A stretch of DNA of 64,000 bases from contig CALOAN010000011.1 of NCBI GenBank assembly GCA_942491345.1, forward strand, positions 53,113 through 117,112, in the 5' to 3' direction. The notes beneath the pieces were generated by a model. The model ran no database searches. It was given only the letters and a program-made list of their open reading frames with translations, and was not told the origin of the DNA. This DNA comes from an uncultured actinomycete. Its GTDB lineage: Bacteria; Actinomycetota; Acidimicrobiia; Spongiisociales; UBA5794. Positions 3,428-27,725 of the stretch are shown here, in pieces. Every line of letters begins with the position of its first letter. The stretch's first letter is position 1. The position numbers and the translations under genes are program-made.

Positions 3428-3883
3428 CTATTCCTTTTCCTGCTGGAACACGCGTCCGGGGAAACGGACCAGTTCTTTTATACGCGCCTTCCGTATCTTT
3501 TGTTCCTGCAGATCTTTTTTTTCGAAGGCTTCACTCAACTTGACCATCAGTTCTTCCAGCTTGATGGGTTTTAGAAGATAGTCGAAGGCCCCCATTTTCA
3601 TCCCTTCGATGCTGGTTTCAACCGAGCCGTGCCCTGTCAGCAGGATCACCTCCGTCAATGGCTGATGACGTTTGATTTCCCGCAAGGTTTCAATACCGTC
3701 GATCCCCCCCGGCATTTTGACATCGAGAATGACGACGTCGATGCGCTTTTCCCCTAATATTTTCAGCGCCTCTTCGCCGCTGGTGACACCCACGGTATCG
3801 ATGTTGCGTTTTTGGAGACGTTTGACCAGTGTTTCCAGGAAATCGACTTCATCGTCAACGACCATAATACTGAAATAATCCAT
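3428..3883 (-). CDS. single-domain response regulator (REC + short C-terminal helix)
   Basis: VVDDE, VILDVKMPG, LLTGHG and YLLKP motifs; RBS GGGGAGG before ATG 3883. Confidence 0.92.
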   Translation of the reverse strand: MDYFSIMVVDDEVDFLETLVKRLQKRNIDTVGVTSGEEALKILGEKRIDVVILDVKMPGGIDGIETLREIKRHQPLTEVILLTGHGSVETSIEGMKMGAFDYLLKPIKLEELMVKLSEAFEKKDLQEQKIRKARIKELVRFPGRVFQQEKE

Positions 3884-3906
3884 ATGTGCCTCCCCGTCAT
3901 GATGCG

Positions 3907-5568
3907 TCATTTTTTTTCCGGAATGACAATCGGAATTTCAACCGTAAAAACGGCCCCCTTGTCGGGATTGTTTTTCACCTGAATGCTGCCGCCCATTTTG
4001 CTGATGATGCTGTGGCTGACCCAGAGGCCAAGGCCGGTTCCTTTGCCGGATTCTTTGGTGGTATAAAACGGGTCGAAAATTTTGCGCATTTTTTCTTCGC
4101 TGAGCCCCGGGCCGTCATCCCGGATATTCACTACGATAACATCATCACGGCGTCGACTGTCCACCTCGATCGCGCCGTTGCTGCCGATGGCGTCGATCGC
4201 GTTCGAGATCAGGTTTAAAAACACTTGTTGCAGCTGGGCCTGGTCACCGGCGATAATGGGGATCGTATCCGCCAGATCCACCTGGATATCGATATTGTTG
4301 ATGCGGGCATGATTTTCGAGAATGGTGATGGTTTGGTGAATGGTGTCATTCACATCCACATCTTCCAGGCGCGGTTCCATTTTCCGCGCGTATCCGAGCA
4401 TATTGTGAACGACTTTGCGCGCGCGCTCGACGTGTTCTTCGATTTTGGCAATGGATTTCCTGAATTCCGCGATGTTTTCACTCTCCCTGAGTTCTTCTTC
4501 CGCCAGCAGGTCTTCCAGCCAGCCCGTTTTCTGGAGGATGACGGCCAGGGGGTTGTTGATTTCGTGGGCCACACCGGCCGCCATTTTGCCGAGGGCCGCC
4601 AATTTGTCCGACTGCATCAACTGGGCATTGAGTTCGATCATTTCCTGATCGGCTTTGATCAGCCGGCTGATGGCCAGCCGGGTGGTAAAAACCGTCGTCG
4701 CCATGATCGCCAGGACGCCCAGGGTGATAATGAATATCTCCGTCTGGCGCAGGGCAAACAGACGCGACATGAGCTCCAGTGGTTGCTGGTTGATGACCAG
4801 CAGCCACTTGTTGTCGTTCAGCCAACTGCCGGCATAGAGCCGTTCTTCACCCGTTGGATCGGGCTTTTCGATGACGGTGACACGTCCCCCGAATTGAGTT
4901 GTATCGAGGCTGGTTTTTTCCAGCACGTCCCCGTCAAACCGGGGGCGGGTCTGAAAGATGCCATCCCGGTTGACCAGGTAGGCATCCCCTGTCCGGCCAA
5001 TCTGGGCCGACCGTATGATCTCCTCGAAGCGGTTGGGGTCGATCGTGGCCCTCAGGATCCAGGCCTGCTGATTTTCATGGCGGCGGACCGCGATAATGAA
5101 ATGCGGCTGACGGCGAAACCCCATATAGACGTCACTTTTATAGTGCCCTTTGACGATCACCTCGTTAAACCAGGGCTGATCGAAATAATTGCGACCCCGG
5201 AGATCGTAGGGCCCCACATAGGCCCTGTGGGTGCCGATGCTGTCGATAATTCCCAGGTCGACGAACGCGCCGGCATGGGCATTCATGACGTCGAAAATGC
5301 GCGCCAGGTTTTTTTCGTCGATCATGTGGTCAAAGGTGTGGGTATCCGCCATGGCATTCAGAATGGCCGTGCGCTCCTTTAAAAACAGATCGACCGCTTC
5401 CGCCTGAGCCTGGGCCCGGTATCGGATTTGCTCCTTGGTTTTCTCGCGGCAGGTCGCTTCGAACTGGTAGTAAAGCGTCATCCCCAGAATCAGCAGCGGG
5501 GCCAGGGACACGACCAGTGTCAGGGCGATAATTTTTCGCTGCAGATTGCGATACACCTGTTCCTTCAT
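3907..5568 (-). CDS. membrane sensor histidine kinase with extracytoplasmic Cache-like domain (HK1)
   Basis: Two TM segments, H-box GVAHEINNPL, N-box NLISNAIDA, G-boxes DDGPG and FYTTKESGKGTGLGL. Confidence 0.93.
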   Translation of the reverse strand: MKEQVYRNLQRKIIALTLVVSLAPLLILGMTLYYQFEATCREKTKEQIRYRAQAQAEAVDLFLKERTAILNAMADTHTFDHMIDEKNLARIFDVMNAHAGAFVDLGIIDSIGTHRAYVGPYDLRGRNYFDQPWFNEVIVKGHYKSDVYMGFRRQPHFIIAVRRHENQQAWILRATIDPNRFEEIIRSAQIGRTGDAYLVNRDGIFQTRPRFDGDVLEKTSLDTTQFGGRVTVIEKPDPTGEERLYAGSWLNDNKWLLVINQQPLELMSRLFALRQTEIFIITLGVLAIMATTVFTTRLAISRLIKADQEMIELNAQLMQSDKLAALGKMAAGVAHEINNPLAVILQKTGWLEDLLAEEELRESENIAEFRKSIAKIEEHVERARKVVHNMLGYARKMEPRLEDVDVNDTIHQTITILENHARINNIDIQVDLADTIPIIAGDQAQLQQVFLNLISNAIDAIGSNGAIEVDSRRRDDVIVVNIRDDGPGLSEEKMRKIFDPFYTTKESGKGTGLGLWVSHSIISKMGGSIQVKNNPDKGAVFTVEIPIVIPEKK

Positions 5569-5606
5569 AATGCCCCCCGCTTGGATTCTCCCGCGGTTGC
5601 CTTGTT

Positions 5607-7268
5607 TCAGCCGACCGTCGGCCAGGCCAGCCAGCGCCAGTAGCCGAACACCGCCCAAAACCAGAGCACGAGCCAGGCCAGGATCGTCACCGGAACCCCG
5701 TATTTTATAAAATCCATGACGTCCAGCAGGCGTTCGCCGGTTTCCGGATCGCGCCCCATACCGAAACAGATGGCGTTGTTGGGCGTTCCCACAACGAGGA
5801 AGTTCGCAAAGGATGACGAAAAAGACGTAATCAGCCCCACCTTCCAGACGCTGACATTGGCTAAGGTTGCCATGGGCAGCACGATGGGACCTAAAGCGGC
5901 AACCGTGGCGCCGTCGCTCATGAAATTGGTCATGGTGCCGGTGAGAATACTGACACCGACGACAAGCCCATCGCCTTTGGTCAGCGCATCCGGCAGCAGG
6001 TTGACGAATGAATTGGCCAGCCAGAGAGCGCCGCCGGTGAACTTGAGCCCCACCCCCATGGCACAGGCCGCCGCATAGAGTCCCACCACGTCAAACGCCA
6101 CGCCTTCCTGCAGGTCCTCCCAGGTTATGATGCGGCACACGAACATGGCCATCACGGCGTACAGCGTCGGCCCGCCGAGACCGGCATGTTCGCCGAGCAC
6201 GATCCAGGCGATCACCAACGCCACCAGGATGATGGCCATCAGCGCTTCCCGCCCCCCGAATTTGGGCATGCGGGCCACTTCGGCCTTGACGACTTCACTG
6301 GGATTCATTTCCTTGACCTGGAATTTGGGTTTGCAGCGGATGTACATGTAAGCGCCGATCACCACCGACATCAGCGGAACGAAGGGCATGCCGATTTTCA
6401 TCCAGTCGAGAAACGAAATCGGGGACCCATACTCCATTAAATAGCCCACCATGATGGCGTTGCGCCCCCCGGCCGCCGGCGACCCCGGCCCCCCGTGATT
6501 GGCGGCGAAGCAGACCCCCAGGAGCAGAAAAATCGCCAGCGCGCGATCCTTCTGGACACCGTGTATTTTGCAGGTCACCTTGTAGATCCCCATCAGCACC
6601 GGGATCAGGAGGGCCACCAGGGCATGCTCGGACAAAAAGCCAGCCGAAATCGCCAGCATGGGCAGGAACATGAAGGCAAAGGCCTTGGTGCTCTTGATAC
6701 GGCTCAATAAAATAAGACCGATGCGCTTATCGAGTCCTGTTTTGGCCACCCCCACGGCCACCGCCAGGATGCCGAAAATGAAGAAAACGGCATCTTTCAT
6801 ATACGCCTGGGATATTTCATTGATGGGCAAAATCATAAAAAGGTAGAGCAGCACCGCCACCAGAAGGTCGGTGGCCCCCAGGGGCAAGGCTTCGGTCCCC
6901 CATAAAAAGGCTGCCAGGAAAAGGATGCCCACCATGATTTTTGCCAGCTGCGCCACTTTTTCGTCGGTCAGCAGCGGTTCTTGATCGTGGTTCGTAGGGA
7001 CGGCCTGCCCTTGTTTTTCAGCCGTGAACGCTTCCGGTCGCAGTTTCTTGTTGACCGTGTCGACAATCGTGTTGCAGCCCGTCCCGAGTTTATATCCCGG
7101 CGGGTCGGCCTTGCGGACCATGTCCAGCATGCTTTGCGGCGGCGGTAACATCACGATCGCCAAAAAGACCAACCCGGCGATCAGGATCAGAATGGGTTTA
7201 TATCCCGGTCGATTTTTCCATGTCCATGCCTGTGTCGCGATTTCCTCAGTTGCCATATGATGTGTCAT
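5607..7268 (-). CDS. DASS/SLC13 family anion transporter (copy 1)
   Basis: Many TM helices; LWGTEALPLGAT, MKDAVFFIFG, VAKTGLDKRI, GGRNAIM and VGTPNNAI motifs; RBS GAGGAGG. Confidence 0.88.
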   Translation of the reverse strand: MTHHMATEEIATQAWTWKNRPGYKPILILIAGLVFLAIVMLPPPQSMLDMVRKADPPGYKLGTGCNTIVDTVNKKLRPEAFTAEKQGQAVPTNHDQEPLLTDEKVAQLAKIMVGILFLAAFLWGTEALPLGATDLLVAVLLYLFMILPINEISQAYMKDAVFFIFGILAVAVGVAKTGLDKRIGLILLSRIKSTKAFAFMFLPMLAISAGFLSEHALVALLIPVLMGIYKVTCKIHGVQKDRALAIFLLLGVCFAANHGGPGSPAAGGRNAIMVGYLMEYGSPISFLDWMKIGMPFVPLMSVVIGAYMYIRCKPKFQVKEMNPSEVVKAEVARMPKFGGREALMAIILVALVIAWIVLGEHAGLGGPTLYAVMAMFVCRIITWEDLQEGVAFDVVGLYAAACAMGVGLKFTGGALWLANSFVNLLPDALTKGDGLVVGVSILTGTMTNFMSDGATVAALGPIVLPMATLANVSVWKVGLITSFSSSFANFLVVGTPNNAICFGMGRDPETGERLLDVMDFIKYGVPVTILAWLVLWFWAVFGYWRWLAWPTVG

Positions 7269-7402: not shown

Positions 7403-7831
7403 TCACGACATCTTTCCTTCGGGACAACGATGCCCGGCAGCCTCTGCAATCCCCACCGTTGACGACCGCAACAGCCGACCGACGGCCTCCTTGATGCGCT
7501 CCACGCTGTCCCCGGCTTTTTCGATGATGGTGACCCAGCGATCATCGTTGCGAAGCAGCGCTTCGTCATGGCGCAGATGGGTATGAAGCACGATGGGAAG
7601 CACCGGAATGCGATCCGCCAGGGTGGCTAACATCGCGGCCAGGTCGATACCGGGTAAATCGGGATCCAGAATCAGCAGATCGATGCCATCCCGGGCATAG
7701 GCCATTTTCAAAACGTTCTCAGCAGTGGCGGCCATTTTCACGCGATAGCCTTCCGCCATCAGCTCACGCAGTAAAAACATGCGCACATGAGAGTTGCGGT
7801 CGGCAATCAATATGGTGAAAAATTCTTCCAT
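7403..7831 (-). CDS. atypical stand-alone receiver-domain protein (copy 1)
   Basis: ILIADRN...DLLILDPDLPG...IVLHTH...IIEK; REC fold pattern with an altered acidic pocket. Confidence 0.78.
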   Translation of the reverse strand: MEEFFTILIADRNSHVRMFLLRELMAEGYRVKMAATAENVLKMAYARDGIDLLILDPDLPGIDLAAMLATLADRIPVLPIVLHTHLRHDEALLRNDDRWVTIIEKAGDSVERIKEAVGRLLRSSTVGIAEAAGHRCPEGKMS

Positions 7832-7957
7832 CACTTACTCCGCTATCAAAGCCGTCAGGCGAAAGGGTCTCATAATCCGTTCGTCGGCAGTGAAAAGATC
7901 CTGCGCCCGCATCACACCGGCGACTCTCCCGGAAAATTTCATTGCCGGACATCGCCC

Positions 7958-8404
7958 TCAGGAATTCGCGATAATCTCCCGCGGGGATTTCATCAGGTAC
8001 CGCATCCGGGCCACCCGTATTTTTTCCTCCATCCCCTGCCGCCGAGAAAATGCTTCCTCGGCTTTGGCGATAAGATCCTTGACATCGGTGGGTTTCATCA
8101 GATAGTCGCTGGCGCCGGATTTCAATCCATCGATGGCCGATTCCACGGTGGCGTGCCCGGTGAGCATGATGACTTCCGTCATGGGAAATTGGCGTTTGAT
8201 TTCCACAAGGGTTGCGTTGCCGTCCATACCCGGCATCTTGACATCCAGAATAACGACATGCACCATGGTCTGGCGCAATGTTTCCAGCGCCTCAGCCCCA
8301 CTGCGGGCCGTCACGACGTCATATCCCTTTCTTTCAAGCAGCTTCTTGGTCGTGGCGAGAAATCGTTCCTCGTCGTCCACCAGCATGAGTTTCATTGCTT
8401 CCAT
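7958..8404 (-). CDS. single-domain response regulator
   Basis: LVDDEE, VILDVKMPGMDG, MLTGHA and YLMKP motifs. Confidence 0.92.
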   Translation of the reverse strand: MEAMKLMLVDDEERFLATTKKLLERKGYDVVTARSGAEALETLRQTMVHVVILDVKMPGMDGNATLVEIKRQFPMTEVIMLTGHATVESAIDGLKSGASDYLMKPTDVKDLIAKAEEAFSRRQGMEEKIRVARMRYLMKSPREIIANS

Positions 8405-8491
8405 TTCACGTTCCCTCCTGATTTCCATAGGTCTTGCGTTATCCTCAGCACAGAAGGCGCATCACCCCATCGCATGCAGGATGGGGCGCCA

Positions 8492-10189
8492 CTATGCATC
8501 TCTGGTATCGGTCGTCGGCAACCGAACCGTAAAAACAGAACCACGCCCCTGATCGCTTTTCACTTCCATGGTGCCCCCCATGCTCTCGATGATGCCGTAG
8601 CAAACGGAGAGGCCTAGTCCGGTTCCTTCGCCCACCGGTTTGGTGGTGAAAAACGGTGAAAACACTTTGGCAAGGTTGTCCGGGCTGATACCGCAGCCAT
8701 TATCGGAGACCATGATTTCGACCCAGCCATCCGGTTTCATTACCGTGTCGATGCGCAACTCCCCGCCGGATGAGCCATGCCGGTCGAGGATGGCGTCGAG
8801 GGCGTTGTTGAAAAGATTGATCAACACCTGCTGAAGCTGGGCCGGATCCCCTTGCACCGGGGCGGCATCATCCGCCACCTGCTGTTCAAGCGTGATCCCA
8901 TGGACGCTGGCCCGTTTCGCTACCATCTGAACGACTTCGGGGATGTAGCGGTGAAGGTCGATGGACTGAACGGTGGGCTCCGCCTGCCGTCCGAATTTCA
9001 AAATCGCCTGTGTAATTTGTGCACAGCGCGATATTTGAAGGTCCACCTGATCCATGGACTCCTCCAGTTCCGTTAGCGACGGCGACGGCTTTAATTCGCC
9101 TGCTTCCTTCAGGTCGGTTAAGATGGCCGCCATCAGGGACTGTTCGCTTTTTATGATCTGGAGCGGATTGTTGATCTCGTGGGCAAACCCCGCAGCCATC
9201 TCCCCCAACTCAGCCAACCGGCTGGCACTAATGAGTTGTTGGCCGAGTTGGTCTTTCTCCGCATCGATCTTTTGCATGCGGTTCACGATACGGTTGGTGA
9301 GATAAAACGCCGCGACAATGATCAGCAAACCACCCAGCAGACAAATCAAAGCCGTGGCAAAGACCGTCGTGCGGAGGGCCTGATAAGCTTCCGCTTTGGC
9401 CTGTCGCACGAACAGAACCCAGGTGCCGCCTTTCAAGAGGGTAACGGCATACAAATAATCCCCCTTGGTAAAATAGGTGTTTTCGCTAATGGGCACTCCC
9501 TGCGGGCCATCGCGAAACCGCATGACGTCACCGGCCACATCCAACAAGTTGCCGTCTGATCTGCGGGTCGTCTGGAGCACCCCTTCCCGATTCATGATGA
9601 AGGCTTCGCCGGTTTGGCCAATTTCCACGCCTCCTACCAAGGTGTTGAAGGTCTGACTATCGATGGTCGCGCGCAGAACCCAGCGTCCCTGATCGCTGTC
9701 ACGCGCAACAGCGATGACGAAATGGGGAGACTTTCGAAAGCCCATGAAAACGTCACTGATAAAGACCCCCTGTTTGATCACTTCCTTGAACCAGGATTCA
9801 TCCTTGTAGATTTTACCGGTCAACGGAAAAGGTCCCTGATACGCCACGTGAACCCCATTGGCATCAAAAACACCCAGATCCGTATAGGCATTGGAGGTTA
9901 GCTGGAGGCGTGAAAAAATGGTGGCCAACATCTGGTGGTGGCGCAGTTCATCGAACTGGTAGGAGGCGTGAATCAACTCCAGATCACTTACCCGCTCCTT
10001 TAAAAACGATTCGATAATCTCGCGATGATCGCGTGCGATCCGCTGCATATTCTTAAGCGTGCGGGTCTCTAAAGAAACCTTGAAGTGATAGAAACCGATG
10101 AGCAGGATCAAAACAAAAGGAATGGCCGGCACGAGGATCATACAGGTCAATATGGTACGCTTAATCGAACTGTAACGATGGCGACTCAC
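8492..10189 (-). CDS. membrane sensor histidine kinase, Cache-like (HK2)
   Basis: Two TM segments, H-box GFAHEINNPL, NLFNNALDA, DNGCG, FFTTKPVGEGTGLGL; GTG start. Confidence 0.93.
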   Translation of the reverse strand: MSRHRYSSIKRTILTCMILVPAIPFVLILLIGFYHFKVSLETRTLKNMQRIARDHREIIESFLKERVSDLELIHASYQFDELRHHQMLATIFSRLQLTSNAYTDLGVFDANGVHVAYQGPFPLTGKIYKDESWFKEVIKQGVFISDVFMGFRKSPHFVIAVARDSDQGRWVLRATIDSQTFNTLVGGVEIGQTGEAFIMNREGVLQTTRRSDGNLLDVAGDVMRFRDGPQGVPISENTYFTKGDYLYAVTLLKGGTWVLFVRQAKAEAYQALRTTVFATALICLLGGLLIIVAAFYLTNRIVNRMQKIDAEKDQLGQQLISASRLAELGEMAAGFAHEINNPLQIIKSEQSLMAAILTDLKEAGELKPSPSLTELEESMDQVDLQISRCAQITQAILKFGRQAEPTVQSIDLHRYIPEVVQMVAKRASVHGITLEQQVADDAAPVQGDPAQLQQVLINLFNNALDAILDRHGSSGGELRIDTVMKPDGWVEIMVSDNGCGISPDNLAKVFSPFFTTKPVGEGTGLGLSVCYGIIESMGGTMEVKSDQGRGSVFTVRLPTTDTRDA

Positions 10190-10283: not shown

Positions 10284-10299
10284 AGCAATAGATATGCCA
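10284..10299 (-). promoter_or_regulatory. sigma54 -24/-12 promoter (island unit 4: HK2-RR-REC*-DASS1-HK1-RR)
   Basis: Minus strand TGGCATATCTATTGCT; identical to the motif at 15801-15816. Confidence 0.82.
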
Positions 10300-10396: not shown

Positions 10397-10413
10397 TGTC
10401 GTGAACTTTTACA
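10397..10413. promoter_or_regulatory. putative sigma54-activator upstream binding site (UAS)
   Basis: TGTCGTGAACTTTTACA, 98 bp from the promoter; matches the sites at 15912, 24253 and 27709. Confidence 0.65.
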
Positions 10414-10700
10414 CAGCGGAAAGTAATTTTTCCGGCAGGGAGGTAAGAAGCAACCGAGGGCGGTGGGATGCTTTCGCTTCACGCCGATTAGCGTTGTCGG
10501 GCGTATCCGCACTTCTCTTTTGATCTTGGCACAGCGATGTTGTTTTAAGGAGGGCTTCCGCAGGCAGAGTGCCGGTCGAACAGCTTGTGCAGCGCCGTTC
10601 GGCCGGCAACGGTTTGGCTATCTGACAGGAATGGGGCCCGGCTCAGATGATGCCACGGCGGCCACGTCCAGATGGCGTGGCATGTCGCGCAGGGCGGGTA

Positions 10701-11159
10701 TTATTTCTCCTTCTCTTGCTGAAACACACGCCCGGGAAAGCGCATCAATTCCTTGATTTGGGCTTTCCTGATTTTCTGGTCATGAAGATTTTTCTTTTCG
10801 AAAGCTTCTCCCAGCTTGGCCATCAGATCTTCCAGCTTGATGGGTTTCAAAAGATAATCGAACGCCCCTAGCTTCATCCCTTCGATGCTGGTTTCCATCG
10901 ATCCGTGCCCCGTCAGGAGAATCACTTCCGCCAGCGGCTGATGGCGTTTGATTTCCCGCAGGGTTTCAATGCCATCCATTCCGCCCGGCATTTTGATATC
11001 CAGAATAATCACGTCGAAGCGTCGTTTTTCCAAAGCCGCCAGCGCTTCTTCGCCGCTGGTGACACCGACCGTATCGATGTTGCGCTTCTGCAGACGCTTG
11101 ACCAGTGTTTCCAGAAAATCGACTTCATCGTCAACGACCAAGATGCTGAAATAATCCAT
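10701..11159 (-). CDS. single-domain response regulator (paralog of 3428-3883)
   Basis: MDYFSILVVDDEVDFLETLVKRLQKRNIDTVGVTSGEEAL, near-identical to copy 1. Confidence 0.92.
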   Translation of the reverse strand: MDYFSILVVDDEVDFLETLVKRLQKRNIDTVGVTSGEEALAALEKRRFDVIILDIKMPGGMDGIETLREIKRHQPLAEVILLTGHGSMETSIEGMKLGAFDYLLKPIKLEDLMAKLGEAFEKKNLHDQKIRKAQIKELMRFPGRVFQQEKEK

Positions 11160-11181
11160 CTGTGCCTCCCGTCTTGGTGAT

Positions 11182-12844
11182 TCATTTTTTTTCCGGAATC
11201 ACAATCGGAATCTCAACCGTAAACACGGCGCCCTTATCGGGGTTGTTCTTCACGTGAATACCGCCGCCCATTTTGGCGATAATGTTGTGGCTGACCCAGA
11301 GACCGAGGCCCGTTCCCTTGCCGGGGTCCTTGGTGGTGAAAAAGGGGTCGAAAATCTTGCGCATCATGTCCTCACTGAGTCCCGGACCGTCATCCTTGAT
11401 GGTCACCACAATATGGTCATCGCTGCGCCAGCTGGCCACCTCGATGGTGCCGTTGCTGCCGATGGCGTCGATGGCGTTGGTAAGAAGATTCAAAAAGACC
11501 TGCTGGAGCTGGGCCTGGTCCCCGGCGATAATCGGCACCGTTTCCGCCAGATCCACCTGAATGTCGATATTGTTGATGCGGGCATGGTTTTCAAGAATCG
11601 TGATGGTCTGGTCGATGGTGCTGTTGACGTCCACGTCCTCCAGACGGGGCTCCATTTTACGGGCATAACCCAACATATTATGGACCACTTTGCGCGCCCG
11701 TTCAACATGCTGCTCGATTTTGGCAATGGATTGCCGGAATTCCGCGATATTGGCACTTTGCTTGAGCCCCTCCTCCTCCAGAAGATCTTCCATCCAGCCC
11801 GTCTTCTGGAGGATGACGGCCAGGGGGTTGTTGATCTCGTGGGCCACGCCGGCGGCCATTTTCCCCAGGGCCGCCAGCTTGTCCGACTGGACCAGCTGGG
11901 CATTGAGTTCGATCATTTCCCGATCGCTTTTCTGCAGCCGGTTGATGGTGAGCCGGGTCGTAAAAATGGTGGTGGCCACGATCCCCAGAACACCCAAGGG
12001 TAATGATGAAGATCTCCATCTGACGCAGCGCAAAAAGACGCGACATGAGCTCCAGGGGCTGCTGGTTGATGATCAGCAGCCACTTGTTGTCATTCAACCA
12101 GCTGCCGGCATAAAACCGTTCCGTGCCGGCGGCGTCCTCCAGTTCGATCACCGTCACCCGACCGCCGAACTGCCGGGTGTCGATGGTGGTCTGGCCCAGC
12201 ACATCGCCGTCGAAACGCGGGCGGGTCTGGAAAACCCCCTCCCGGTTGACCAGGTAGGCGTCGCCCGTGCGCCCGATCTGGGCCGACCGCACGATCTCCT
12301 CGAAACGGTTGGGGTCGATGGTGGCCCGCAGGATCCAGGCCTGCTGGTTCTCATGGCGCCGCACCGCGATGATGAAGTGCGGCTGTTGGCGGAACCCCAT
12401 GTAGACGTCACTTTTGTAATGCCCCTTGATCATGACCTCGTTGAACCAGGATTGATCGAGGTAGTTGCGCCCTCGCAAATCATAAGGGCCGATATACGCC
12501 CTGTGGGCCCCGCGGCTGTCGATAATGCCGAGATCCACGAAGGCGCCGGCCCGGTTGTTCATCACTTCGAAAATGCGGGCCAGATTCTTCTCGTCGATCA
12601 TCTGCGCGAAGTCATGGGTATCCGCCATGGCATTCAGAATGGCCGTGCGCTCCTTCAGAAACAGATCCACCGCCTCCGCCTGGGCCTGGGCCCGGTAGCG
12701 GATCTGTTCCCGGGTCATTTCGCGGCCGGCACTTTCGAACTGGTAATAGAGCACACCCCCCAGGATCAGCAGCGGCGTCAGCGACATCACCAGGGTCAGG
12801 GTAATGATTTTACGCTTGAGCGTGCGATACAGGCCTTCTTTCAT
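11182..12844 (-). pseudogene. sensor histidine kinase HK3 (paralog of HK1) with a +1 frameshift near 11996-11997; may be a sequencing error
   Basis: ORFs 11702-12844 (sensor half) and 11182-12033 (kinase half) join at ACC CTTG GGT, against ACC CTG GGC in HK1. Confidence 0.85.
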
Positions 12845-18879: not shown

Positions 18880-18913
18880 CGGTCACAGCAGCGATCGGGT
18901 GGCCGCCGCACGG

Positions 18914-19600
18914 TCAATGTTCGAGGCGCAGCCCCCATCCTTCAAACAGGAACATGATGCCAAACCCATACCAGAGCGTATAGAGCACGTAAAACACCAA
19001 CGAAAAGATAACGATGCCGTAGCGATCCGATATGCTCTGGGGTTCGATGCGGTAGTAATTATAGGCGGTTTCGATGGCTTTTTGGTTGATGGTGGCCACG
19101 ATCTTGGCGGCCTTGAACTGTTTCTGGCGTTTGAGTTCCTTTTCCATGGCATTACTCGCCGCCCACCAGTTGTAGAGAACCTGCCGTTCTTCGTATCCAT
19201 ACTTGTCGGACACGGCAGTCCCCTTGTTGTGATACATCAGATCGGCGTCCTCGAGACTGACCGCGAGCATTGCCCCCAGGTCTCCGTCCAGTGAGAGCGC
19301 GGCACCCGAGACGTTGACCAGCGCGCCCCCTTTCTGGAAAAGCAGGGATGTCTGGCGGGCCTGGGTTTCATCCTGCATGGTCAAGGTCAGCTTGACATTG
19401 CTGCCGGCGTAGGTTTTGGCTTCGTCCTGCATGGCCGGAATATAATAGGCGGACCCCTTGGATATGGAGTTGTAGAGCGAATCGAGATAGTCGAGACCGT
19501 TATGCCCTTTGAAAATCGGCATGAACATCACGATCAAGATCACCACAAAAATCGCCATCATGCCGGCGCCGCTGTAGAATTCTCCTTTTTTTGCGATCAT
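18914..19600 (-). CDS. hypothetical membrane protein (N- and C-terminal TM helices, large extracytoplasmic loop), coupled to the TauE gene
   Basis: 228 aa; hydrophobic segments at both ends; ATGA overlap with the TauE stop. Confidence 0.8.
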   Translation of the reverse strand: MIAKKGEFYSGAGMMAIFVVILIVMFMPIFKGHNGLDYLDSLYNSISKGSAYYIPAMQDEAKTYAGSNVKLTLTMQDETQARQTSLLFQKGGALVNVSGAALSLDGDLGAMLAVSLEDADLMYHNKGTAVSDKYGYEERQVLYNWWAASNAMEKELKRQKQFKAAKIVATINQKAIETAYNYYRIEPQSISDRYGIVIFSLVFYVLYTLWYGFGIMFLFEGWGLRLEH

Positions 19601-20941: not shown

Positions 20942-21379
20942 TCACTCTGTCGGCGAACTTTCCGATTTCAGCATCATGTTCAGGGTTTTTATTTTTGCTT
21001 CCTGTATCGTCTTTTTGTGAAAGGCATCCTGAATCTTATAGAGTAAATCATCGATATCGACCGGTTTCATCAGGTAGTCAAAGGCCCCGTTTTCCATGCC
21101 TTCCCGGGCCACCTCCAGGCTTGCATGCCCGGTCAGCATGACCACCTCGGTCAGGGGCGTCTTTTTTTTGATCGCCCGCAGTGTTTCAATGCCCCCCATG
21201 CCCGGCATCCTGACATCCAGCACCACCACGTCCGCCGGGAACTGGGCCAGATGCACCAGCGCCTCTTCACCGCTGCCGACACCGGCGGCGTTCACATCGC
21301 GTTTACGCATCCGCTTGAGCAGGGTCTGCAAAAAGTCCGGTTCATCGTCCACAAACAGGACCGTCATTGGTTCCGACAT
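20942..21379 (-). CDS. single-domain response regulator
   Basis: LFVDDE, VVLDVRMPG, MLTGHA, YLMKP. Confidence 0.92.
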   Translation of the reverse strand: MSEPMTVLFVDDEPDFLQTLLKRMRKRDVNAAGVGSGEEALVHLAQFPADVVVLDVRMPGMGGIETLRAIKKKTPLTEVVMLTGHASLEVAREGMENGAFDYLMKPVDIDDLLYKIQDAFHKKTIQEAKIKTLNMMLKSESSPTE

Positions 21380-21380
21380 C

Positions 21381-21755
21381 TCATTTCTCCCGTTTAACGG
21401 CCTGCATGATTTTGGCGACGAGATCCTCCAGATCGCTGGGTTTGGTCAGGTAGTCAAACGCACCGGAGGCAACCCCTTCCCGCGCCGCCTGCTCCGAGCC
21501 GTGCCCGGTCAACATGATCACCGGCATGGCCGGAACGAGTTTCTTGAATATCTTGAGGATTTCGATACCGTCCATATCTTCCAGTTTCAGGTCCAGCACA
21601 GCCACATCAAAATCCTGTTTGCGCAATGTCTGGATCGCCTCGGTTCCGCTATAGGCTGCCGTAACGACCATATTCCGTTTGGATAACCGTTTGCTCAGAA
21701 CGTCGACGAAACCCACTTCGTCGTCCACCAGAAGCAGCTTTATGGTCTTGGGCAT
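21381..21755 (-). CDS. single-domain response regulator
   Basis: LLVDDE, AVLDLKLED, MLTGHG, YLTKP; start at ATG 21755 after RBS GAGGAG. Confidence 0.9.
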   Translation of the reverse strand: MPKTIKLLLVDDEVGFVDVLSKRLSKRNMVVTAAYSGTEAIQTLRKQDFDVAVLDLKLEDMDGIEILKIFKKLVPAMPVIMLTGHGSEQAAREGVASGAFDYLTKPSDLEDLVAKIMQAVKREK

Positions 21756-21907: not shown

Positions 21908-22340
21908 TCAGGTGCGGGCTTTGAGAATGTTACTCACCCGGGCTTCACGAATCTTCTCTTCATGATCGCGCTTTTTCTTGGTGGCCGCATTCACCTTTTC
22001 GATGAGTACATCCATGTCGCAAGGTTTCATCAGGTAATCGAAGGCCCCCAGCCGCATGCCCTCGATGCTCGTTTCCACGGTGGCATGACCGGTGAGCATG
22101 ATGACCTCAACCAAGTGGAAATTCCTTGCGAATTTCTTTCAGTGTCTCGATCCCGTCCATTCCCGGCATTTTGACGTCCAAAATGACAAGATCGATCTGG
22201 CTGTTTTCTTTGAGGGTTTCCAGCGCCTCTTCCCCGCTGTAGGATTTGAAGACGGTAAGCTTCCGTTTGGTCAGCCGCTTTGTCATGGTATCGACAAAGG
22301 GGGCCTCATCGTCCACCAGCAAAACAATCGGTTCCAACAT
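21908..22340 (-). pseudogene. single-domain response regulator with a +1 frameshift at 22113-22114; may be a sequencing error
   Basis: ORFs 22107-22340 and 21908-22114 join at CCA CTTG GTT GAG; removing one base gives ...EFPLVEVIMLTGH. Confidence 0.85.
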
Positions 22341-22403: not shown

Positions 22404-24101
22404 TTAACCAACGTGTTCTTCTCGGACGGGAATCTTGATCACAAACGTCGTCCCTTCGTCCATGGTACTGTCCACACTGATATCGCCGCCCATCTTTTTG
22501 ATGATGCCGTAACAAATCGACAGACCCAGGCCGGTGCCTTTGCCCACCGGTTTGGTCGTGTAAAACGGGTCGAAAATCCGATCGAGGTTGGCGGGCGGAA
22601 TTCCCGGGCCGGTATCCCGCACTTCGATGACCAACTGGTTCTTTTCACGGCGGGTGGCGACAACAATTTCCCCCCCCTGCCGCTCCATGGCATCCACCGC
22701 GTTGTTGATCAGGTTGAGGAACACCTGCTGCATTTCGGAGGGTGACGCCTGGATGGTCGGCAAGTGCGCGTCCAATTGCGGCGTGATGGTCACCTTGGCG
22801 TATTTGGCGCGCTGTTCCGAGAGACCCACGACCTCCTCGATCAGATCGTTGATCGAAAACTCTTGCAAGCGGGCATCGGTTTTACGGGCAAAACTGAGCA
22901 GTTTGTGGGTAATTTCCTTGCAGCGCTTACCCTGTGTATTGATCTGCTTCAAGGCCCGCTCGAACTCGTCCAGGTTCTCACTCCGGGCGAAATCCTCCTC
23001 CTCCAGCAGGTCCTGAATCCATCCGGCTTCCTCGACCATGATGGCCACCGGGTTGTTGATTTCGTGAGCGATGCCGGCCGCCAGTTCACCGATGGACGCC
23101 AGTTTGCCGGTTTCGATCACCTGCTCGTTCATCAATTCCTTGGCACGGTCGGCCTCTTTGATACGCCCCACCTGCCGGATGGAGAGCATGCTGGCCATGA
23201 TGATGATGCTCACCCCGCCGACGATAAAGATGACGACGGAAATGAACTGGGCGCGCCTCAAATCCGAGAACGCGTCCGCGCTTTCCTGCCGGTAGACCAG
23301 CAGCCAATCTTTGTCCTTGAGCAGGGCCGTGACGTAGATACTTTCTTTGCCGTCATCGCCCTCACGCTCCATAATCGTGACATCGTTGTTCAGTTCTTTT
23401 TCACAGTCGAAAAAATGCCCGTAGCACCCTTTGCTGGGGACGAAGTCGATCAGCGGCTTGGTCTGGAATTCGCCCCGGCGGTTCAGGATATAGGCAAACC
23501 CGGTTTCCCCCACCCGTATATTTTCCACCAGGTCGTTGAACGCCACGAAATCAATGGTGGCCCTCAGGATCCACGGTTCCCCGTTAAAGGTGTTCTTGAC
23601 CGCAATGATGAAATGGGGCAGCCGTCGCAATCCCAAGAAAACGTCGCTGATCACATACTCCTTGCTCATGGCCTGCTGAAACCAGTCCGTGTCTGCATAA
23701 ACGGCCTCGGTCAGTTTGAAAGGGCCGGCATAGGCCACCTGCTGGCCGGCGCCGTTGATGACGCCAAGATCCACAAAAACGGGGCGGTAGTTGCGCTGCA
23801 GGGAGGCCAGGGTCGACTGCAGGAAGGTTTCGTCGCTCAGATTGGCGTAACCGAGGTTTCGGGATAGAAACCGGATATCCGCCAGTTTATCCACTAGAAA
23901 GGCATCAATTTGCTGCCGGTGTTTTTCCACCAATTCTTCAAGGTGGGCATACACTTTTTCCCGATAGGAGGCATAGAAATTGTAATAGATGGTGCTGCCC
24001 ACCAGAAACACGGGAATGAAGGAGACAACGATGATCGCCACCGTCATATTCAGCGTCAGCGAGCGATAATAAGGGGATAGCAGCTGTTTCGGTTTCGACA
24101 T
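22404..24101 (-). CDS. membrane sensor histidine kinase, Cache-like (HK4)
   Basis: Two TM segments, GIAHEINNPV, NLINNAVDA, DTGPG, FYTTKPVGKGTGLGL; start at ATG 24101. Confidence 0.93.
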   Translation of the reverse strand: MSKPKQLLSPYYRSLTLNMTVAIIVVSFIPVFLVGSTIYYNFYASYREKVYAHLEELVEKHRQQIDAFLVDKLADIRFLSRNLGYANLSDETFLQSTLASLQRNYRPVFVDLGVINGAGQQVAYAGPFKLTEAVYADTDWFQQAMSKEYVISDVFLGLRRLPHFIIAVKNTFNGEPWILRATIDFVAFNDLVENIRVGETGFAYILNRRGEFQTKPLIDFVPSKGCYGHFFDCEKELNNDVTIMEREGDDGKESIYVTALLKDKDWLLVYRQESADAFSDLRRAQFISVVIFIVGGVSIIIMASMLSIRQVGRIKEADRAKELMNEQVIETGKLASIGELAAGIAHEINNPVAIMVEEAGWIQDLLEEEDFARSENLDEFERALKQINTQGKRCKEITHKLLSFARKTDARLQEFSINDLIEEVVGLSEQRAKYAKVTITPQLDAHLPTIQASPSEMQQVFLNLINNAVDAMERQGGEIVVATRREKNQLVIEVRDTGPGIPPANLDRIFDPFYTTKPVGKGTGLGLSICYGIIKKMGGDISVDSTMDEGTTFVIKIPVREEHVG

Positions 24102-24144: not shown

Positions 24145-24160
24145 AGCAACAACCATGCCA
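24145..24160 (-). promoter_or_regulatory. sigma54 -24/-12 promoter (island unit 2: HK4-RR-RR-RR-TauE-accessory)
   Basis: Minus strand TGGCATGGTTGTTGCT, 44 bp upstream of the start codon. Confidence 0.82.
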
Positions 24161-24252: not shown

Positions 24253-24289
24253 TGTCGGTTTTTTTTACAGGGTGCAAAAAATAACGACA
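24253..24289. promoter_or_regulatory. putative paired UAS for a sigma54 activator
   Basis: TGTCGGTTTTTTTTACA-GGG-TGCAAAAAATAACGACA (inverted pair), 93 bp from the promoter. Confidence 0.72.
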
Positions 24290-24495: not shown

Positions 24496-25932
24496 TCAGC
24501 CATCGCCTTGATAAACTGCGGTCTCAATTTTGAGATGGTATTTATCGATTTTGGCATGCAGCGTCGGCCGGGACATCCCCAGCAGTTTGGCGGCACGGGA
24601 TCGATTGCCGCCGGTGTACTGCAGCGCCTCATGGATAAGGATGCGGGCAAAAAAATCCATGCAGCGGTCGTACAAGTTGTCGGTATCCTCCGCTTTGGCG
24701 GCATCCCGGAACCAGCGCCGGATATCGCTTTCCAGGCTGCCGCTTTCCGCCTGCGGATGATCGTCCTTGCCCGCCAAGGCCGCCGCAATATCGGGCGGAC
24801 CGATAGGCGCACCGCGGTTGAAGATCAGTGTTTTTTGGAGGGTGTTGGCCAGTTCCCGGACGTTGCCGGGCCAGCGGTTGTTGGTTAAGGTGGCCAAGGC
24901 CCCCTCGGTGATACCCGGGTTTTTGATCCCCAGTTCCGCTGCGAATCGATCCAGGAAATAAGCGCTCAACAACGGAATATCGGTAATCCGCTCCCGCAGG
25001 GAGGGCAGGCCGATGGTAATGACCTTGAGCCGGTAGTAGAGATCCTCACGAAACAGGGCCTGGGAGATAAGCGTTTCCAGGTCACGGTTGGTGGCGGCGA
25101 TAATCCGCACATCCACCGGAATGGTCTCCCGTCCGCCAAGACGTTCGATTTTTTTCTCCTGCAACAGTCGCAGTATTTTGGTTTGAAGATTGACGGGCAT
25201 ATCGCCAATTTCATCAAGAAATACCGTACCGCCGCCGGCCTGCTCGATCTTGCCCAGCCGGCGATGGGCCGCGCCGGTGAAAGCGCCTTTCTCGTACCCG
25301 AAAAGCTCGCTTTCCAGCAGGGTCTCGGGCAACGCCACGCAATTGATCACAAGGAAGGGTTTGTCCGCACGCTGGCTGTGCTGATAAATCGCCCGCGCCA
25401 CCAGCTCTTTGCCGGTGCCCGTTTCGCCGCGAATCAAAACAGTGGCATCCGTCGACGCCACGCGCCCGACCATTTTGAAAACCTGCTGCATGGCATCGCT
25501 GCGTCCGATGATGGCGTCGCGGTCGGTTTTCGCGGGGGCGTCGCCCATATTGACCGGCGAGCGCATAAACCTTCCGGTCTCGAGCGCCTGGCCGATGGTT
25601 TTCAGCATGGCCGGTATGTCGAAAGGCTTGAGGATATAATCAAACGCGCCCATCTTGGTGGCTTCAATGGCGGTTTCGGTGGTGCTGAAAGCGGTCATGA
25701 TAATGACCGGCAGCTTGGGTTCAACCATATGAATGGCCCGAAACGTTTCCAGTCCGTTCATTCCGGGAAGACGGACATCGAGCACCACCACGTCGGGCAG
25801 GGCGGCGCCGACGATTTGCAGGCCCTCCTCACCGGAGGCCGCGCTTTGCACCTGATGGCCTTCTTCGATCAGCAGTTTGGCAAAACTTTTGCGCAGTTGA
25901 TCGTCATCGTCGATGATGAGGATGTGACTCAT
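24496..25932 (-). CDS. NtrC-family sigma54-dependent response regulator (REC-AAA+-HTH)
   Basis: IIDDD/VLDVRLPG receiver; GETGTGKE, GAFTGA, FLDEIG and WPGNVREL; C-terminal HTH GNRSRAAKLLGMSRPTL. Confidence 0.95.
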   Translation of the reverse strand: MSHILIIDDDDQLRKSFAKLLIEEGHQVQSAASGEEGLQIVGAALPDVVVLDVRLPGMNGLETFRAIHMVEPKLPVIIMTAFSTTETAIEATKMGAFDYILKPFDIPAMLKTIGQALETGRFMRSPVNMGDAPAKTDRDAIIGRSDAMQQVFKMVGRVASTDATVLIRGETGTGKELVARAIYQHSQRADKPFLVINCVALPETLLESELFGYEKGAFTGAAHRRLGKIEQAGGGTVFLDEIGDMPVNLQTKILRLLQEKKIERLGGRETIPVDVRIIAATNRDLETLISQALFREDLYYRLKVITIGLPSLRERITDIPLLSAYFLDRFAAELGIKNPGITEGALATLTNNRWPGNVRELANTLQKTLIFNRGAPIGPPDIAAALAGKDDHPQAESGSLESDIRRWFRDAAKAEDTDNLYDRCMDFFARILIHEALQYTGGNRSRAAKLLGMSRPTLHAKIDKYHLKIETAVYQGDG

Positions 25933-27418
25933 CGGTTGACTCCTTTACCGGCAGTGTCACGATAAGGGTTGCCCCGCCGCCTTCGGTTTCGGCGATATCC
26001 AGCCACCCGTGGTGTTCGTCGATGATGCGTTTGGCAATGCTCATCCCCAATCCGGTGCCTTCTTCCTTGGTCGTAAAAAAGGGATCGAACACTTTGGGGC
26101 GCAGCGCTTCGGGAATCCCGGGGCCATTGTCACTCACACGGATGACGGCCTCGCGCCGGGCATCCGTCCCCAGGGACACCACTTCTTCAATCCGAATGGT
26201 CCCCCCTCTTTCCATGGCTTCACAGGCATTGATCACGAGGTTCACCAGGACCTCTTTTAGTTGGTCCGGATCGGCATCCACCGCGGGAAGGCTGCTGCTG
26301 CGGATCACCTCGACATGAACATCATAGGATTTCAAGCGATGGGACAGGAGTTGCAGCACCGTGTCCACCACGGCCGAGGGGCTGATGCGTTGCATGACCA
26401 GCTTGGGCGGGCGGGAAAATTCCAAAAAATTTTGCACGATGGTGTCGATGTGGCGAATTTCCTCGGAAACGACATCGAAATCTTCCTGCTGGGCGTCGTT
26501 CAATTTAAGGCTGCGCTCGAGGGAAAACAGCCGCATTTTCACCGAGGTGAACGGGTTGCGGATGCTGTGCGCCATTCCGGCCGCCAGTTTGCCGACGACG
26601 GCCAGTTTTTTGGCCTGCAGAAGGTTTTCCCGGCTTTTCTCCAATTCGGATTGGGTGGAATCCATATTGTCCAGCAGGTCGTAAACCCGGTGACTGAGGA
26701 TTTTGATGACGTTTTCCTTCTTCGTCACGACGTCTTCATGGGTGACGGCTTGAATCAGTCGCCGGATCGGCCCCAGGATCTCTTTTACGACGATCATGGC
26801 CAGGAAAAGCGCCAGGATAAAATTCGCCAGAATCGCAACCACGGCGATCGTTCGAAGCTTTAGGGCCTCGGCGCGGCTTTCCTGCCGTGCTTCGATGATG
26901 TTGTGCACATTGACGGTCTTGAACTTGTCGCACAGGTCGAGAATGGTAAAAAAGCGTTCGCGCACCTCTTCGTGCAAAACGGCCCCGGCGTCGGAACGGC
27001 CGCTTTTATAGAGCAAAATCACTTTGTCCCGGGAGTGAACATACTGGCGGTATTCGGCGGCAATGCGGTTGATCGTGTCTTTTTGATCCGGGGAGGCGGC
27101 AAGCGACTGGGCATCGTTCAATTTGCGGTTGAAGCGCTCCTGGTATTCACGCAGCTGCCGCAGCCAGTCCGGATTGCCGTCCAGAAAATAGTAGGAAACG
27201 AATCCTTTCTGGTTGGCTAAAGCGATCTGCAGATCTTCGGCGGTTTCCAGCAGCACCATATTTTCGTCGGTGACGGTGGTGATGAGTCCTTCGATCCGGT
27301 AAGTATACCAGATCATCACCACGGCGCCCAAAAACGTGATCAGGACCAGCGATGCCAGCATCAGGTAAATTCGCTTGCGCAGAACGATGCGGTTCCAAAT
27401 GGGAATGTTAAAGGGCAT
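25904..27418 (-). CDS. sensor histidine kinase with four-helix-bundle sensor and atypical H-box (HK5)
   Basis: Two TM segments; H-box GMAHSIRNPF; NLVINACEA, DNGPG, FFTTKEEGTGLG. Confidence 0.9.
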   Translation of the reverse strand: MPFNIPIWNRIVLRKRIYLMLASLVLITFLGAVVMIWYTYRIEGLITTVTDENMVLLETAEDLQIALANQKGFVSYYFLDGNPDWLRQLREYQERFNRKLNDAQSLAASPDQKDTINRIAAEYRQYVHSRDKVILLYKSGRSDAGAVLHEEVRERFFTILDLCDKFKTVNVHNIIEARQESRAEALKLRTIAVVAILANFILALFLAMIVVKEILGPIRRLIQAVTHEDVVTKKENVIKILSHRVYDLLDNMDSTQSELEKSRENLLQAKKLAVVGKLAAGMAHSIRNPFTSVKMRLFSLERSLKLNDAQQEDFDVVSEEIRHIDTIVQNFLEFSRPPKLVMQRISPSAVVDTVLQLLSHRLKSYDVHVEVIRSSSLPAVDADPDQLKEVLVNLVINACEAMERGGTIRIEEVVSLGTDARREAVIRVSDNGPGIPEALRPKVFDPFFTTKEEGTGLGMSIAKRIIDEHHGWLDIAETEGGGATLIVTLPVKESTDESHPHHRR

Positions 27419-27593
27419 GGTCAGAAAGCCTAAATCGTGTCGTGATCGGCGTATGCCGCAATGGCCGGCAGGAGTGACGAGCGAACCACCGCACTTGCGA
27501 TCGATCCATGTTGGTATGCCATCGGCAACGCCGTCGGCGCACTCGGATGGCATCCCCTTTTCGCCGGAAAACGCATCGCAACCCGTTAAAGAC

Positions 27594-27609
27594 AGCAAAG
27601 CACATGCCA
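27594..27609 (-). promoter_or_regulatory. sigma54 -24/-12 promoter (island unit 1: HK5-NtrC)
   Basis: Minus strand TGGCATGTGCTTTGCT. Confidence 0.78.
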
Positions 27610-27708
27610 AACCACAACCGTGAATCCCGAAAACCGGCAAATGGCGGCCCGTGCCGTGGACTCAGATGCGAATCATCATAAAAAATCAAAAAAAGAACCG
27701 CATTAAGG

Positions 27709-27725
27709 TGTCAGATTTTTTTACA
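27709..27725. promoter_or_regulatory. putative UAS for a sigma54 activator
   Basis: TGTCAGATTTTTTTACA, 100 bp from the promoter. Confidence 0.65.

Follow-up and report, generated by a model that had tools for sequence, protein, structure and literature searches.

The closest described relative of the locus analysed here is a 30.5-kb "DASS-type sulfate transporter" cluster of Desulfosarcina variabilis 3be13, which, according to the text and legends of its description (PMC11887813; Sci Adv 2025), holds numerous two-component systems together with CBS, USP and REC-CBS proteins, has related clusters in 26 sulfate-reducer species, and encodes DASS proteins that are abundant and formed constitutively across many organic substrates. 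The model given there has the Cache kinases as sensors of sulfate outside the cell and "WalR-type" regulators as factors acting at promoters, with the CBS proteins contributing control by energy or by the level of adenosine 5'-phosphosulfate; the description draws on genomic and proteomic data rather than on functional tests. A second likeness comes from a 2026 proteomics study of Dissulfuribacter thermophilus (PMC13490349), in which the products of adjacent genes annotated as phosphoenolpyruvate (PEP) synthase, TauE/SafE-co-occurring transmembrane protein and TauE/SafE were all more abundant under thiosulfate disproportionation, and in which two proteins encoded a few genes away, a USP and a "sulfur deprivation response regulator", were less abundant. 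We compared with these systems an island of signalling and transport genes that forms an uninterrupted minus-strand run at positions 3428-27640 of a stretch of 64,000 nucleotides (contig CALOAN010000011.1, positions 53,113 to 117,112; hereafter the window). We hold with moderate confidence that this island is one sigma-54 regulon of a Desulfosarcina-like sulfate reducer, working by the mechanism proposed below, in which three modules are joined. It is a composite of a conserved core containing a TauE permease, its 228-aa partner (P228) and a PEP-synthase-like dikinase (PPSL), of variable DASS, kinase, receiver and CBS cassettes, and of a regulator pair (the NtrC-type activator and HK_g).

Six-frame open reading frames (ORFs) and Pfam scans of the window give 20 genes in the run, where the original prediction, made from the letters alone, had counted 19. 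In order of transcription these are HK_g, the NtrC-type activator, HK_f, three single-domain receivers, TauE, P228 and PPSL, followed by dREC_c, CBS, DASS_c, HK_c, RR_c, HK_b, RR_b, dREC_a, DASS_a, HK_a and RR_a (Table 1). The predicted inventory agrees with the Pfam content, namely five histidine kinases (four with a periplasmic dCache_1 sensor, one with a 4HB_MCP/CHASE3 sensor), nine receiver proteins, eight of them without output domain (six canonical single-domain receivers, two degenerate ones with an ADRN motif, and the NtrC-type activator as the ninth), two DASS permeases, TauE and its partner, one CBS-pair protein, and one protein with PPDK_N and PEP-utilizers domains. As had also been claimed, no catabolic enzyme gene lies within the island interval.

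Judged by protein identity and gene order, the island is a relative of the Ds. variabilis cluster. DASS_a is 77-79% identical to Ds. variabilis P0478 and P0476, an orthology also recovered by tblastn on the Ds. variabilis locus (CP159846.1; L085 among our related loci), and this locus carries the DASS-dCache kinase-receiver cassette in the same order as the window, together with homologues of dREC, HK_b (53%), RR_b (74%), HK_f (59%) and RR_e (79%). The two clusters are further alike in their CBS proteins, degenerate receivers, upstream site and sigma-54 promoter spacing (next section). On the other hand, the window has fewer DASS copies, no REC-CBS fusion and no USP genes, which are present in L085 and in two other related loci (L055, L057). 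In L085 the fusion is a protein of 300 aa (8548-9450), where the window instead encodes pseudo-receiver and CBS protein in two translationally coupled genes; this fusion and the 4-nt overlap of the dREC_c and CBS genes suggest that the two proteins work together. The NtrC/HK_g pair and the TauE-P228-dikinase genes are visible in the window, whereas L085 ends where TauE-P228-dikinase might follow, and the text and legends of PMC11887813 make no mention of sigma-54, an NtrC-type activator, TauE or a dikinase. The earlier statement that no characterised system with this architecture could be named no longer holds, since the DASS, two-component and CBS part was published in 2025 as a putative sulfate-uptake cluster (PMC11887813, text and legends). 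What appears to be new here is the enhancer and sigma-54 logic, the candidate master regulator, the pairing of pseudo-receiver and CBS protein, the non-canonical DASS motifs, and the link to TauE-P228-dikinase.

Sigma-54 promoters and their common upstream site

A weighted search for TGGCAC-N5-TTGCW identified four minus-strand sigma-54 sites of the form TGGCAT-N5-TTGCT, one per large intergenic gap, and each of them has a site (TTTACA-N4-)TGTAAAA-N6-GACA 109-116 bp upstream. With up to two mismatches allowed, nine matches to this motif lie in the window, whereas 0.9 would be expected by chance and none of the shuffles gave as many as nine. The four pairs of site and promoter head the units HK_g-NtrC, HK_f-three receivers-TauE-P228, dREC-CBS-DASS-HK-RR and HK_b-RR_b-dREC-DASS-HK-RR. 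In loci around dikinase homologues from other genomes we found 47 distinct instances of the pair, with a spacing of 102-116 bp (mode 112-114) and an extended consensus TTTACA-N4-TGTAAAAAAw.CCGACA that contains an inverted repeat; the pair always stands just upstream of a dREC, HK_f, RR_d, TauE, DASS, HK_b, USP or Pat-like acetyltransferase gene or of the HK_g-NtrC operon. In the Ds. variabilis locus the enhancer site occurs three times, in each case followed at exactly 113 bp downstream by a TGGCA element; in two of the three the -12 element reads TTGA instead of TTGC. The arrangement is that of an NtrC-type regulon, with -24 GG / -12 GC promoters and an enhancer about 100-150 bp upstream. This footprint, conserved across genomes, is our strongest single result, and it backs two claims of the original prediction, that of a sigma54-controlled signalling and anion-transport island, with which the gene content also agrees, and that of four promoters sharing one upstream motif.

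Sigma-54 promoters need an AAA+ activator, and the NtrC-type protein is the only DNA-binding protein of the island. It matches Response_reg (1.9e-30), Sigma54_activat (1.3e-73) and HTH_8 (2.2e-13, C-terminal), its translation contains the GAFTGA loop as EKGAFTGA, and its receiver domain aligns with the acidic pocket, phospho-Asp, Thr and Lys in place. Because the pair precedes the HK_g-NtrC operon itself, we assign the site to this activator, which would bind it and drive sigma-54-dependent transcription; the position of P4 upstream of HK_g-NtrC implies autoregulation. The operon carries the pair in the window, in the close relatives L001, L002, L004 and L081, and in the distant loci L039 and L048. 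HK_g, the gene of which overlaps that of the activator, is likely the cognate kinase. A second sigma-54 activator of 337 aa, with AAA+ and HTH_8 domains only and no receiver or sensor domain, is encoded elsewhere in the window (50088-51101, minus strand).

These observations bear on the model of PMC11887813 taken as it stands in the text and legends, in which Cache kinases sense sulfate, "WalR type" receivers bind promoters to induce DASS, CBS proteins exert a second control, and sigma-54 and the dikinase would be incidental. The homology of that cluster to the window cassettes argues for it, and so do the periplasmic sensor domains of the Cache kinases, which, at 34-38% identity between the three classes and with blocks of conservation, are consistent with one type of ligand. 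However, whereas the published model treats the receivers as promoter-binding, the eight partner receivers in the window are stand-alone REC proteins of 125-160 aa without a DNA-binding domain, and their Ds. variabilis counterparts (134-150 aa) are likewise REC-only; promoter binding of the "WalR type" conflicts with these data. Moreover, the promoters found are of the sigma-54 type with a common enhancer site, and the only AAA+ activator in the island pairs with a non-Cache kinase. We consider the published model unlikely in its unmodified form. The idea that several Cache sensors converge on a single sigma54 output is not supported either, since the activator has its own non-Cache kinase, the Cache kinases are themselves products of sigma-54 operons, and the island contains no Hpt protein or other phosphorelay connector. 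A complete set of acidic pair, phospho-Asp, Thr/Ser and Lys is found in seven receivers (RR_a, RR_b, RR_c, RR_d, RR_e, the repaired receiver downstream of HK_f, and NtrC). The two ADRN proteins keep Asp and Thr, but their Lys-Pro region is absent and the second acidic residue is replaced by Arg; they are probably pseudo-receivers.

The same enhancer and sigma-54 promoter also precede USP genes and Pat-like acetyltransferase genes (NDP-forming acyl-CoA synthetase domains plus GNAT; L015, L055 and L065) in relatives, suggesting that the regulon reaches beyond the genes of the window. That genes for CBS, USP and Pat-like proteins recur behind this promoter type lends some support to the predicted gating by energy state. 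Next to the island, and convergent with it, lies a gene of the succinyl-CoA:acetate CoA-transferase family (1658-3205, plus strand) with a sigma-54-like site TGGCATAGACTATGCT at 1475-1490. We rejected this gene as a member of the regulon, as it has no common site 113 bp upstream and the nearest look-alike is 494 bp off.

The TauE, P228 and dikinase core

We analysed synteny by tblastn of the window proteins against 81 loci, in which those with a dikinase 53-62% identical to PPSL were called distant. P228 stands immediately upstream of the dikinase in 57 of 66 distant loci, and further upstream follow TauE (55 of 64) and, just upstream of TauE, a receiver (53 of 62). The conserved core is receiver-TauE-P228, terminator, dikinase, and it is present in about 85% of the distant loci. 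Around it, a Cache kinase is found further upstream in 22 of 47 distant loci and a kinase-receiver pair downstream of the dikinase in 15 of 60. Much rarer within 10 kb of the dikinase are DASS (4 of 28 distant loci), CBS (3 of 28) and a close homologue of NtrC (2 of 28), corresponding to 7-14%. Of the co-occurrence asked about in the original prediction, that of TauE and its partner with the dikinase is supported, in about 86% of the distant loci. An all-against-all clustering of 1151 ORFs from 84 loci revealed no recurrent catabolic enzyme, the recurrent genes being those for signalling, transport, CBS, USP and Pat-like proteins only. A REC-HisKA-HATPase hybrid kinase (399 aa; L042 5607-6806) that is absent from the window recurs with the module in nine loci, and genes of the chromate-transporter family, another family of oxyanion carriers, lie near it in L013 (19588-21021) and L083 (17227-19794, with ChrB).

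The dispersal of DASS, CBS and NtrC could mean that the island is not one system and that independent modules lie side by side in this lineage through duplication and rearrangement. It would also fit that the close relative L001 lacks HK_b-RR_b and that one cassette of the window is a recent duplicate. However, every unit of the window is preceded by this one enhancer site at the same distance, and so are the corresponding units in other genomes. As this is so even where the units are dispersed, common regulation is indicated, and we find a mere juxtaposition of modules improbable. Our preferred reading of the island as one regulon accommodates the dispersal, because the modules are bound together by the common enhancer site, not by fixed adjacency.

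The permease of the core is an enlarged TauE/SafE protein that matches the TauE profile and has 9-10 hydrophobic segments, in agreement with a multi-pass topology. Its stop codon is overlapped by 4 nt by the start of P228. Among 3362 homologues of P228, the best 120 listed are almost all exactly 228 aa long, and any names given are hypothetical. The median spacer from P228 to the dikinase measures 190 bp, and most of 18 related loci inspected show in it a hairpin followed by a T-run; Rfam found no riboswitch or RNA element in this spacer or elsewhere in the island. The PPSL gene has neither a sigma-54 promoter nor an upstream site of its own. Since it lies behind a strong, conserved terminator, and since DASS, CBS or NtrC are so rarely nearby in distant loci, the proposal that the island is "built around" it is not supported.

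Dikinase loci number at least 563 in species-representative genomes, nearly all of them from Desulfobacterales or other Desulfobacterota, and at 90% identity the family falls into more than 2955 clusters, with lengths of 860-880 aa in almost all. PPSL begins with a helical domain of about 120 aa, continues with ATP-grasp and swivel domains, and ends in a conserved C-terminal domain of about 300 aa that is peculiar to the family. It resembles PEP synthase over residues ~122-576 only, having the N-terminal ATP-grasp and the central swivel with the catalytic His (His526, invariant in 28 sequences), and PDB matches end near residue 615. The NCBIfam PEP synthase model is matched at positions 4-472 of 798 with a score of 330 against a cutoff of 598, and the PEP/pyruvate TIM barrel is missing, as the Pfam scan gave no match to PF02896 (PEP-utilizers_C). 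Foldseek searches with the full-length AlphaFold model (pLDDT 72) matched 2ols (1.5e-25), and all matches fell on the ATP-grasp and swivel parts only. The family of the C-terminal domain has 1205 representative clusters; in the best 150 listed the domain closes the protein at its C-terminus, with lengths of 830-900 aa for most of these proteins. Its invariant polar and glycine-rich motifs (HDITRF.HEK, WW.LNLDDG, QFKGGAAD and HTRQ.DM) look typical of a catalytic pocket, while Pfam and a profile search of PDB sequences returned nothing significant for this domain. A second dikinase paralogue, 33-36% identical, lies within 10 kb in L011, L012, L014, L041, L053, L072 and L083, often beside receivers, and in L053 and L072 it is directly upstream of TauE.

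Such a domain structure, and the receiver that regularly accompanies TauE-P228-dikinase in distant loci, raise the question of whether the dikinase is a non-canonical phosphodonor, the phospho-His swivel of which feeds the stand-alone receivers and so brings ATP/AMP status into the two-component network; this would be the phospho-His hub of the original prediction. Paralogous dikinases also adjoin receivers, the N-terminal helical domain is conserved, and the swivel is homologous to that of Enzyme I of the phosphotransferase system (PTS), which phosphorylates a protein. On the other hand, PEP synthase, rifampin phosphotransferase and PigC/RedH act on small molecules, and these are, apart from Enzyme I, the best-matching characterised relatives. 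In addition, none of the ten representatives of unusual length checked among the 1205 C-terminal domain clusters is a fusion with a receiver, the invariant motifs of this domain resemble those of a catalytic pocket, and every receiver of the island already has an adjacent kinase. We regard a phosphodonor role as very unlikely.

The segments 3428-7268 and 10701-14543 are a duplication of the RR-HK-DASS cassette at 80-90% nucleotide identity with an offset of 7275/7276 bp, the 1-bp difference being the frameshift in the second copy. A 1-bp insertion splits HK_c, and another the first receiver after HK_f, as compared with the 94-97% identical relatives L002 and L081, in which both genes are intact; these insertions could be real pseudogenisation or assembly errors. 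The DNA primase of the window consists of two abutting ORFs on the minus strand (39042-39815, with the zinc-ribbon, catalytic core and Toprim part, and 39815-40870, with the DnaB-binding part), and may represent a third frameshift, which, if so, would favour sequence error. Upstream of the island lie the genes for a membrane protein of the Na_H_antiport_3 family (27855-29678, minus strand; adjacent in L081 too) and for a fusion of a thioredoxin domain with a pyridine-nucleotide-disulfide oxidoreductase (29859-31574, minus strand), followed by RNase P RNA (34196-34584), a tRNA (36507-36579) and rpoD (36709-38991), all on the minus strand. The setting of the island is an ordinary chromosomal housekeeping region.

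Table 1. Features of the island in order of transcription, with promoters, upstream sites and related instances
Feature	Position	Strand	Basis or remark
Upstream site 4	27709..27726	-	CTGTAAAAAAATCTGACA; 116 bp upstream of P4
P4 sigma-54 promoter	27594..27609	-	TGGCATGTGCTTTGCT; drives HK_g-NtrC operon
HK_g, kinase with periplasmic 4HB_MCP/CHASE3 sensor	25904..27418	-	Pfam
NtrC-type activator, REC + AAA+ + HTH_8	24496..25932	-	Pfam
Upstream site 3	24253..24289	-	two inverted copies, 24253-24270 and 24272-24289
P3 sigma-54 promoter	24145..24160	-	TGGCATGGTTGTTGCT; weighted scan
HK_f, dCache_1 kinase	22404..24101	-	Pfam
Single-domain receiver	21908..22340	-	split by +1 insertion near 22116; intact, 143 aa, in L081 and L002
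RR_e, canonical single-domain receiver	21381..21755	-	Pfam, alignment
RR_d, canonical single-domain receiver	20942..21379	-	Pfam, alignment
TauE/SafE (TSUP) permease, ~431 aa	19597..20892	-	PF01925 1.1e-34
P228, 228 aa, two transmembrane segments	18914..19600	-	no Pfam match
Intrinsic terminator in P228/dikinase spacer	18853..18880	-	12-bp stem with 11 G-C pairs, then T-run
PPSL dikinase	16038..18680	-	Pfam PPDK_N 1.5e-90, PEP-utilizers 5.2e-18
Upstream site 2	15912..15929	-	ATGTAAAAAATACCGACA
P2 sigma-54 promoter	15801..15816	-	TGGCATATCTATTGCT; weighted scan
dREC_c, degenerate receiver	15250..15669	-	D-R in place of DD; overlaps CBS gene
CBS-pair protein, 184 aa	14699..15253	-	Pfam
DASS_c, non-canonical DASS permease	12882..14543	-	Pfam; SEH/SDG motifs
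HK_c, dCache_1 kinase, paralogue of HK_a	11182..12844	-	split by +1 insertion near 11993
RR_c, canonical single-domain receiver, paralogue of RR_a	10701..11159	-	alignment
Upstream site 1	10397..10414	-	GTGTAAAAGTTCACGACA
P1 sigma-54 promoter	10284..10299	-	TGGCATATCTATTGCT; weighted scan
HK_b, dCache_1 kinase	8492..10189	-	Pfam
RR_b, canonical single-domain receiver	7958..8428	-	alignment
dREC_a, degenerate receiver	7403..7834	-	ADRN motif; alignment
DASS_a, non-canonical DASS permease	5607..7268	-	77-79% identical to Ds. variabilis 'SLC13 family permease' / 'sodium/sulfate symporter' proteins
HK_a, dCache_1 kinase	3907..5568	-	Pfam
RR_a, canonical single-domain receiver	3428..3910	-	alignment; final gene of run
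Pat-like/USP instances in related loci	L015 1307-3275; L055 832-4229; L065 1342-4009; L057 2128-3227		

Proposed circuit, its substrate and known systems

In the circuit that we propose, HK_g would phosphorylate the NtrC-type activator, which would then bind the common site and switch on all four units, including its own operon in a positive feedback. The Cache kinases so induced would sense a periplasmic anion, likeliest sulfate or a related sulfur oxyanion, and would phosphorylate the adjacent single-domain receivers, which must act via protein contacts since they have no DNA-binding domain. The likeliest targets of these receivers would be the co-encoded permeases, the CBS/pseudo-receiver pair or the dikinase, so that transport would be tuned after translation, and the CBS protein with its translationally coupled pseudo-receiver would link DASS activity to adenylate or energy status. 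The dikinase would autophosphorylate its swivel His with ATP, releasing AMP, and would pass the phosphate to an acceptor bound by its C-terminal domain, which may be the solute of TauE-P228. This solute is most likely a sulfur oxyanion, as suggested by the orthology to putative sulfate carriers, by the substrate range of the TSUP family, which fits sulfur oxyanions, and by the data from Dissulfuribacter.

The nature of the anion is also where an organic-acid system has to be weighed, one resembling DctB/DctD-DctA that would handle a dicarboxylate, acetate or another short-chain acid and in which the dikinase would activate the imported acid. Carboxylates are common ligands of dCache_1 kinases and common substrates of DASS carriers, the CoA-transferase gene adjoins the island, an acetyl-CoA hydrolase/transferase gene follows the PPSL-HK-RR genes in L083, and Pat-like genes stand behind the same site and promoter. 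However, although the two DASS proteins match PF00939 (1.3e-38) and align to VcINDY over about 400 residues, with 189.9 and 178.7 bits against NCBIfam TIGR00785, just under its cutoff of 198.6, the hairpin-tip motifs for carboxylate and Na+ are replaced in them, SNT of VcINDY by SEH and SNV by SDG, as the original prediction had noticed. SEH and SDG are conserved among orthologues of 67-97% identity with a single exception (L005, where the first motif reads SAH), and SNT is also absent from two further DASS types in related loci. Furthermore, no catabolic pathway genes recur with the module in the 84 loci, the promoter of the CoA-transferase gene lacks the common site, and the Ds. variabilis DASS proteins are reported as constitutive across many organic substrates (PMC11887813, text and legends). 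Taken together, an organic-acid system seems doubtful to us.

Nevertheless, several observations weigh against a sulfur-oxyanion regulon under the NtrC-type activator. The flanking CoA-transferase gene and the Pat-like acyl-CoA-dependent acetyltransferases with the same promoter type point to organic acids or acyl-CoA status, to which the acetyl-CoA hydrolase/transferase gene of L083 may be added, and the acidic SEH/SDG, standing where SNT is found in carriers of carboxylate and sulfate, is unexpected in a site that binds anions. The assignment of the Ds. variabilis proteins as sulfate carriers is based on TCDB similarity and protein abundance only (PMC11887813, text and legends), and the D. 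thermophilus genes match by annotation and gene order, not by sequence. An activator homologue adjoins the core in just the 2 of 28 distant loci mentioned above, and the assignment of the site to it rests on its autoregulatory placement. The C-terminal domain of PPSL, modelled alone, gave a poor model (pLDDT 53) with no significant Foldseek match (best E = 0.02). Lastly, the substrate, the function of the dikinase, and the transport, ligand binding and phosphotransfer ascribed to the island proteins are predictions from sequence.

If the proposed regulon is real, it turns a published descriptive cluster into testable hypotheses, with a defined enhancer site, four sigma-54 promoters, a candidate master activator with its own sensor kinase, and receivers that are not transcription factors. 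This is of interest because the uptake of sulfate by sulfate reducers and the control of this uptake are an old open question, and because Desulfobacteraceae account for a large share of carbon mineralisation in marine sediments. For the widespread, unnamed three-gene module of TSUP permease, 228-aa partner and novel-domain dikinase, the shared regulation offers a first handle on its role. A bolder reading, which we put forward as speculative and unlikely, is that TauE-P228-dikinase is a new solute-handling or signalling module, in which the dikinase would either phosphorylate and so trap the anion of a two-part TSUP transporter, or feed the co-conserved stand-alone receiver as a kinase-free ATP/AMP input. 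If this were true, one sigma-54 activator would govern both this module and sulfate uptake in dominant marine sulfate reducers. Literature searches for TauE together with dikinase and response regulator, and for the NCBI protein name, returned nothing relevant, nor did a paper on the Desulfovibrio sigma-54 regulome contain anything relevant.

Compared with known systems, the island recalls DctB/DctD-DctA in its periplasmic Cache kinases, its sigma-54 activator with an upstream enhancer site, and its anion carriers as regulated products. However, the kinase next to the activator has a four-helix-bundle sensor instead of a Cache domain, the Cache kinases pair with output-less receivers, and non-canonical DASS and TSUP proteins take the place of DctA as carriers. 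The nitrogen PTS (Enzyme I-Ntr / NPr / EIIA-Ntr) is a phospho-histidine relay genetically linked to sigma-54 and to the control of ion transport, and in this sense, which is conceptual only, it resembles the island in having a swivel-His enzyme in a sigma-54-linked regulation of ion transport. It differs in that the island has no HPr or EIIA homologues and that the nucleotide domain of PPSL takes ATP via ATP-grasp, not PEP. With PEP synthase, pyruvate phosphate dikinase and rifampin phosphotransferase, PPSL has in common an ATP-grasp and a mobile phospho-His domain, in the order seen in PEP synthase, whereas it has a 300-aa domain in place of the TIM barrel and an extra N-terminal helical domain. 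Finally, D. thermophilus is a thermophilic sulfur disproportionator of another order, yet its genes follow the same order, TauE-partner-PEP synthase, a likeness of annotation and gene order in which SEED names the partner a 'transmembrane protein co-occurring with sulfite exporter TauE/SafE'.

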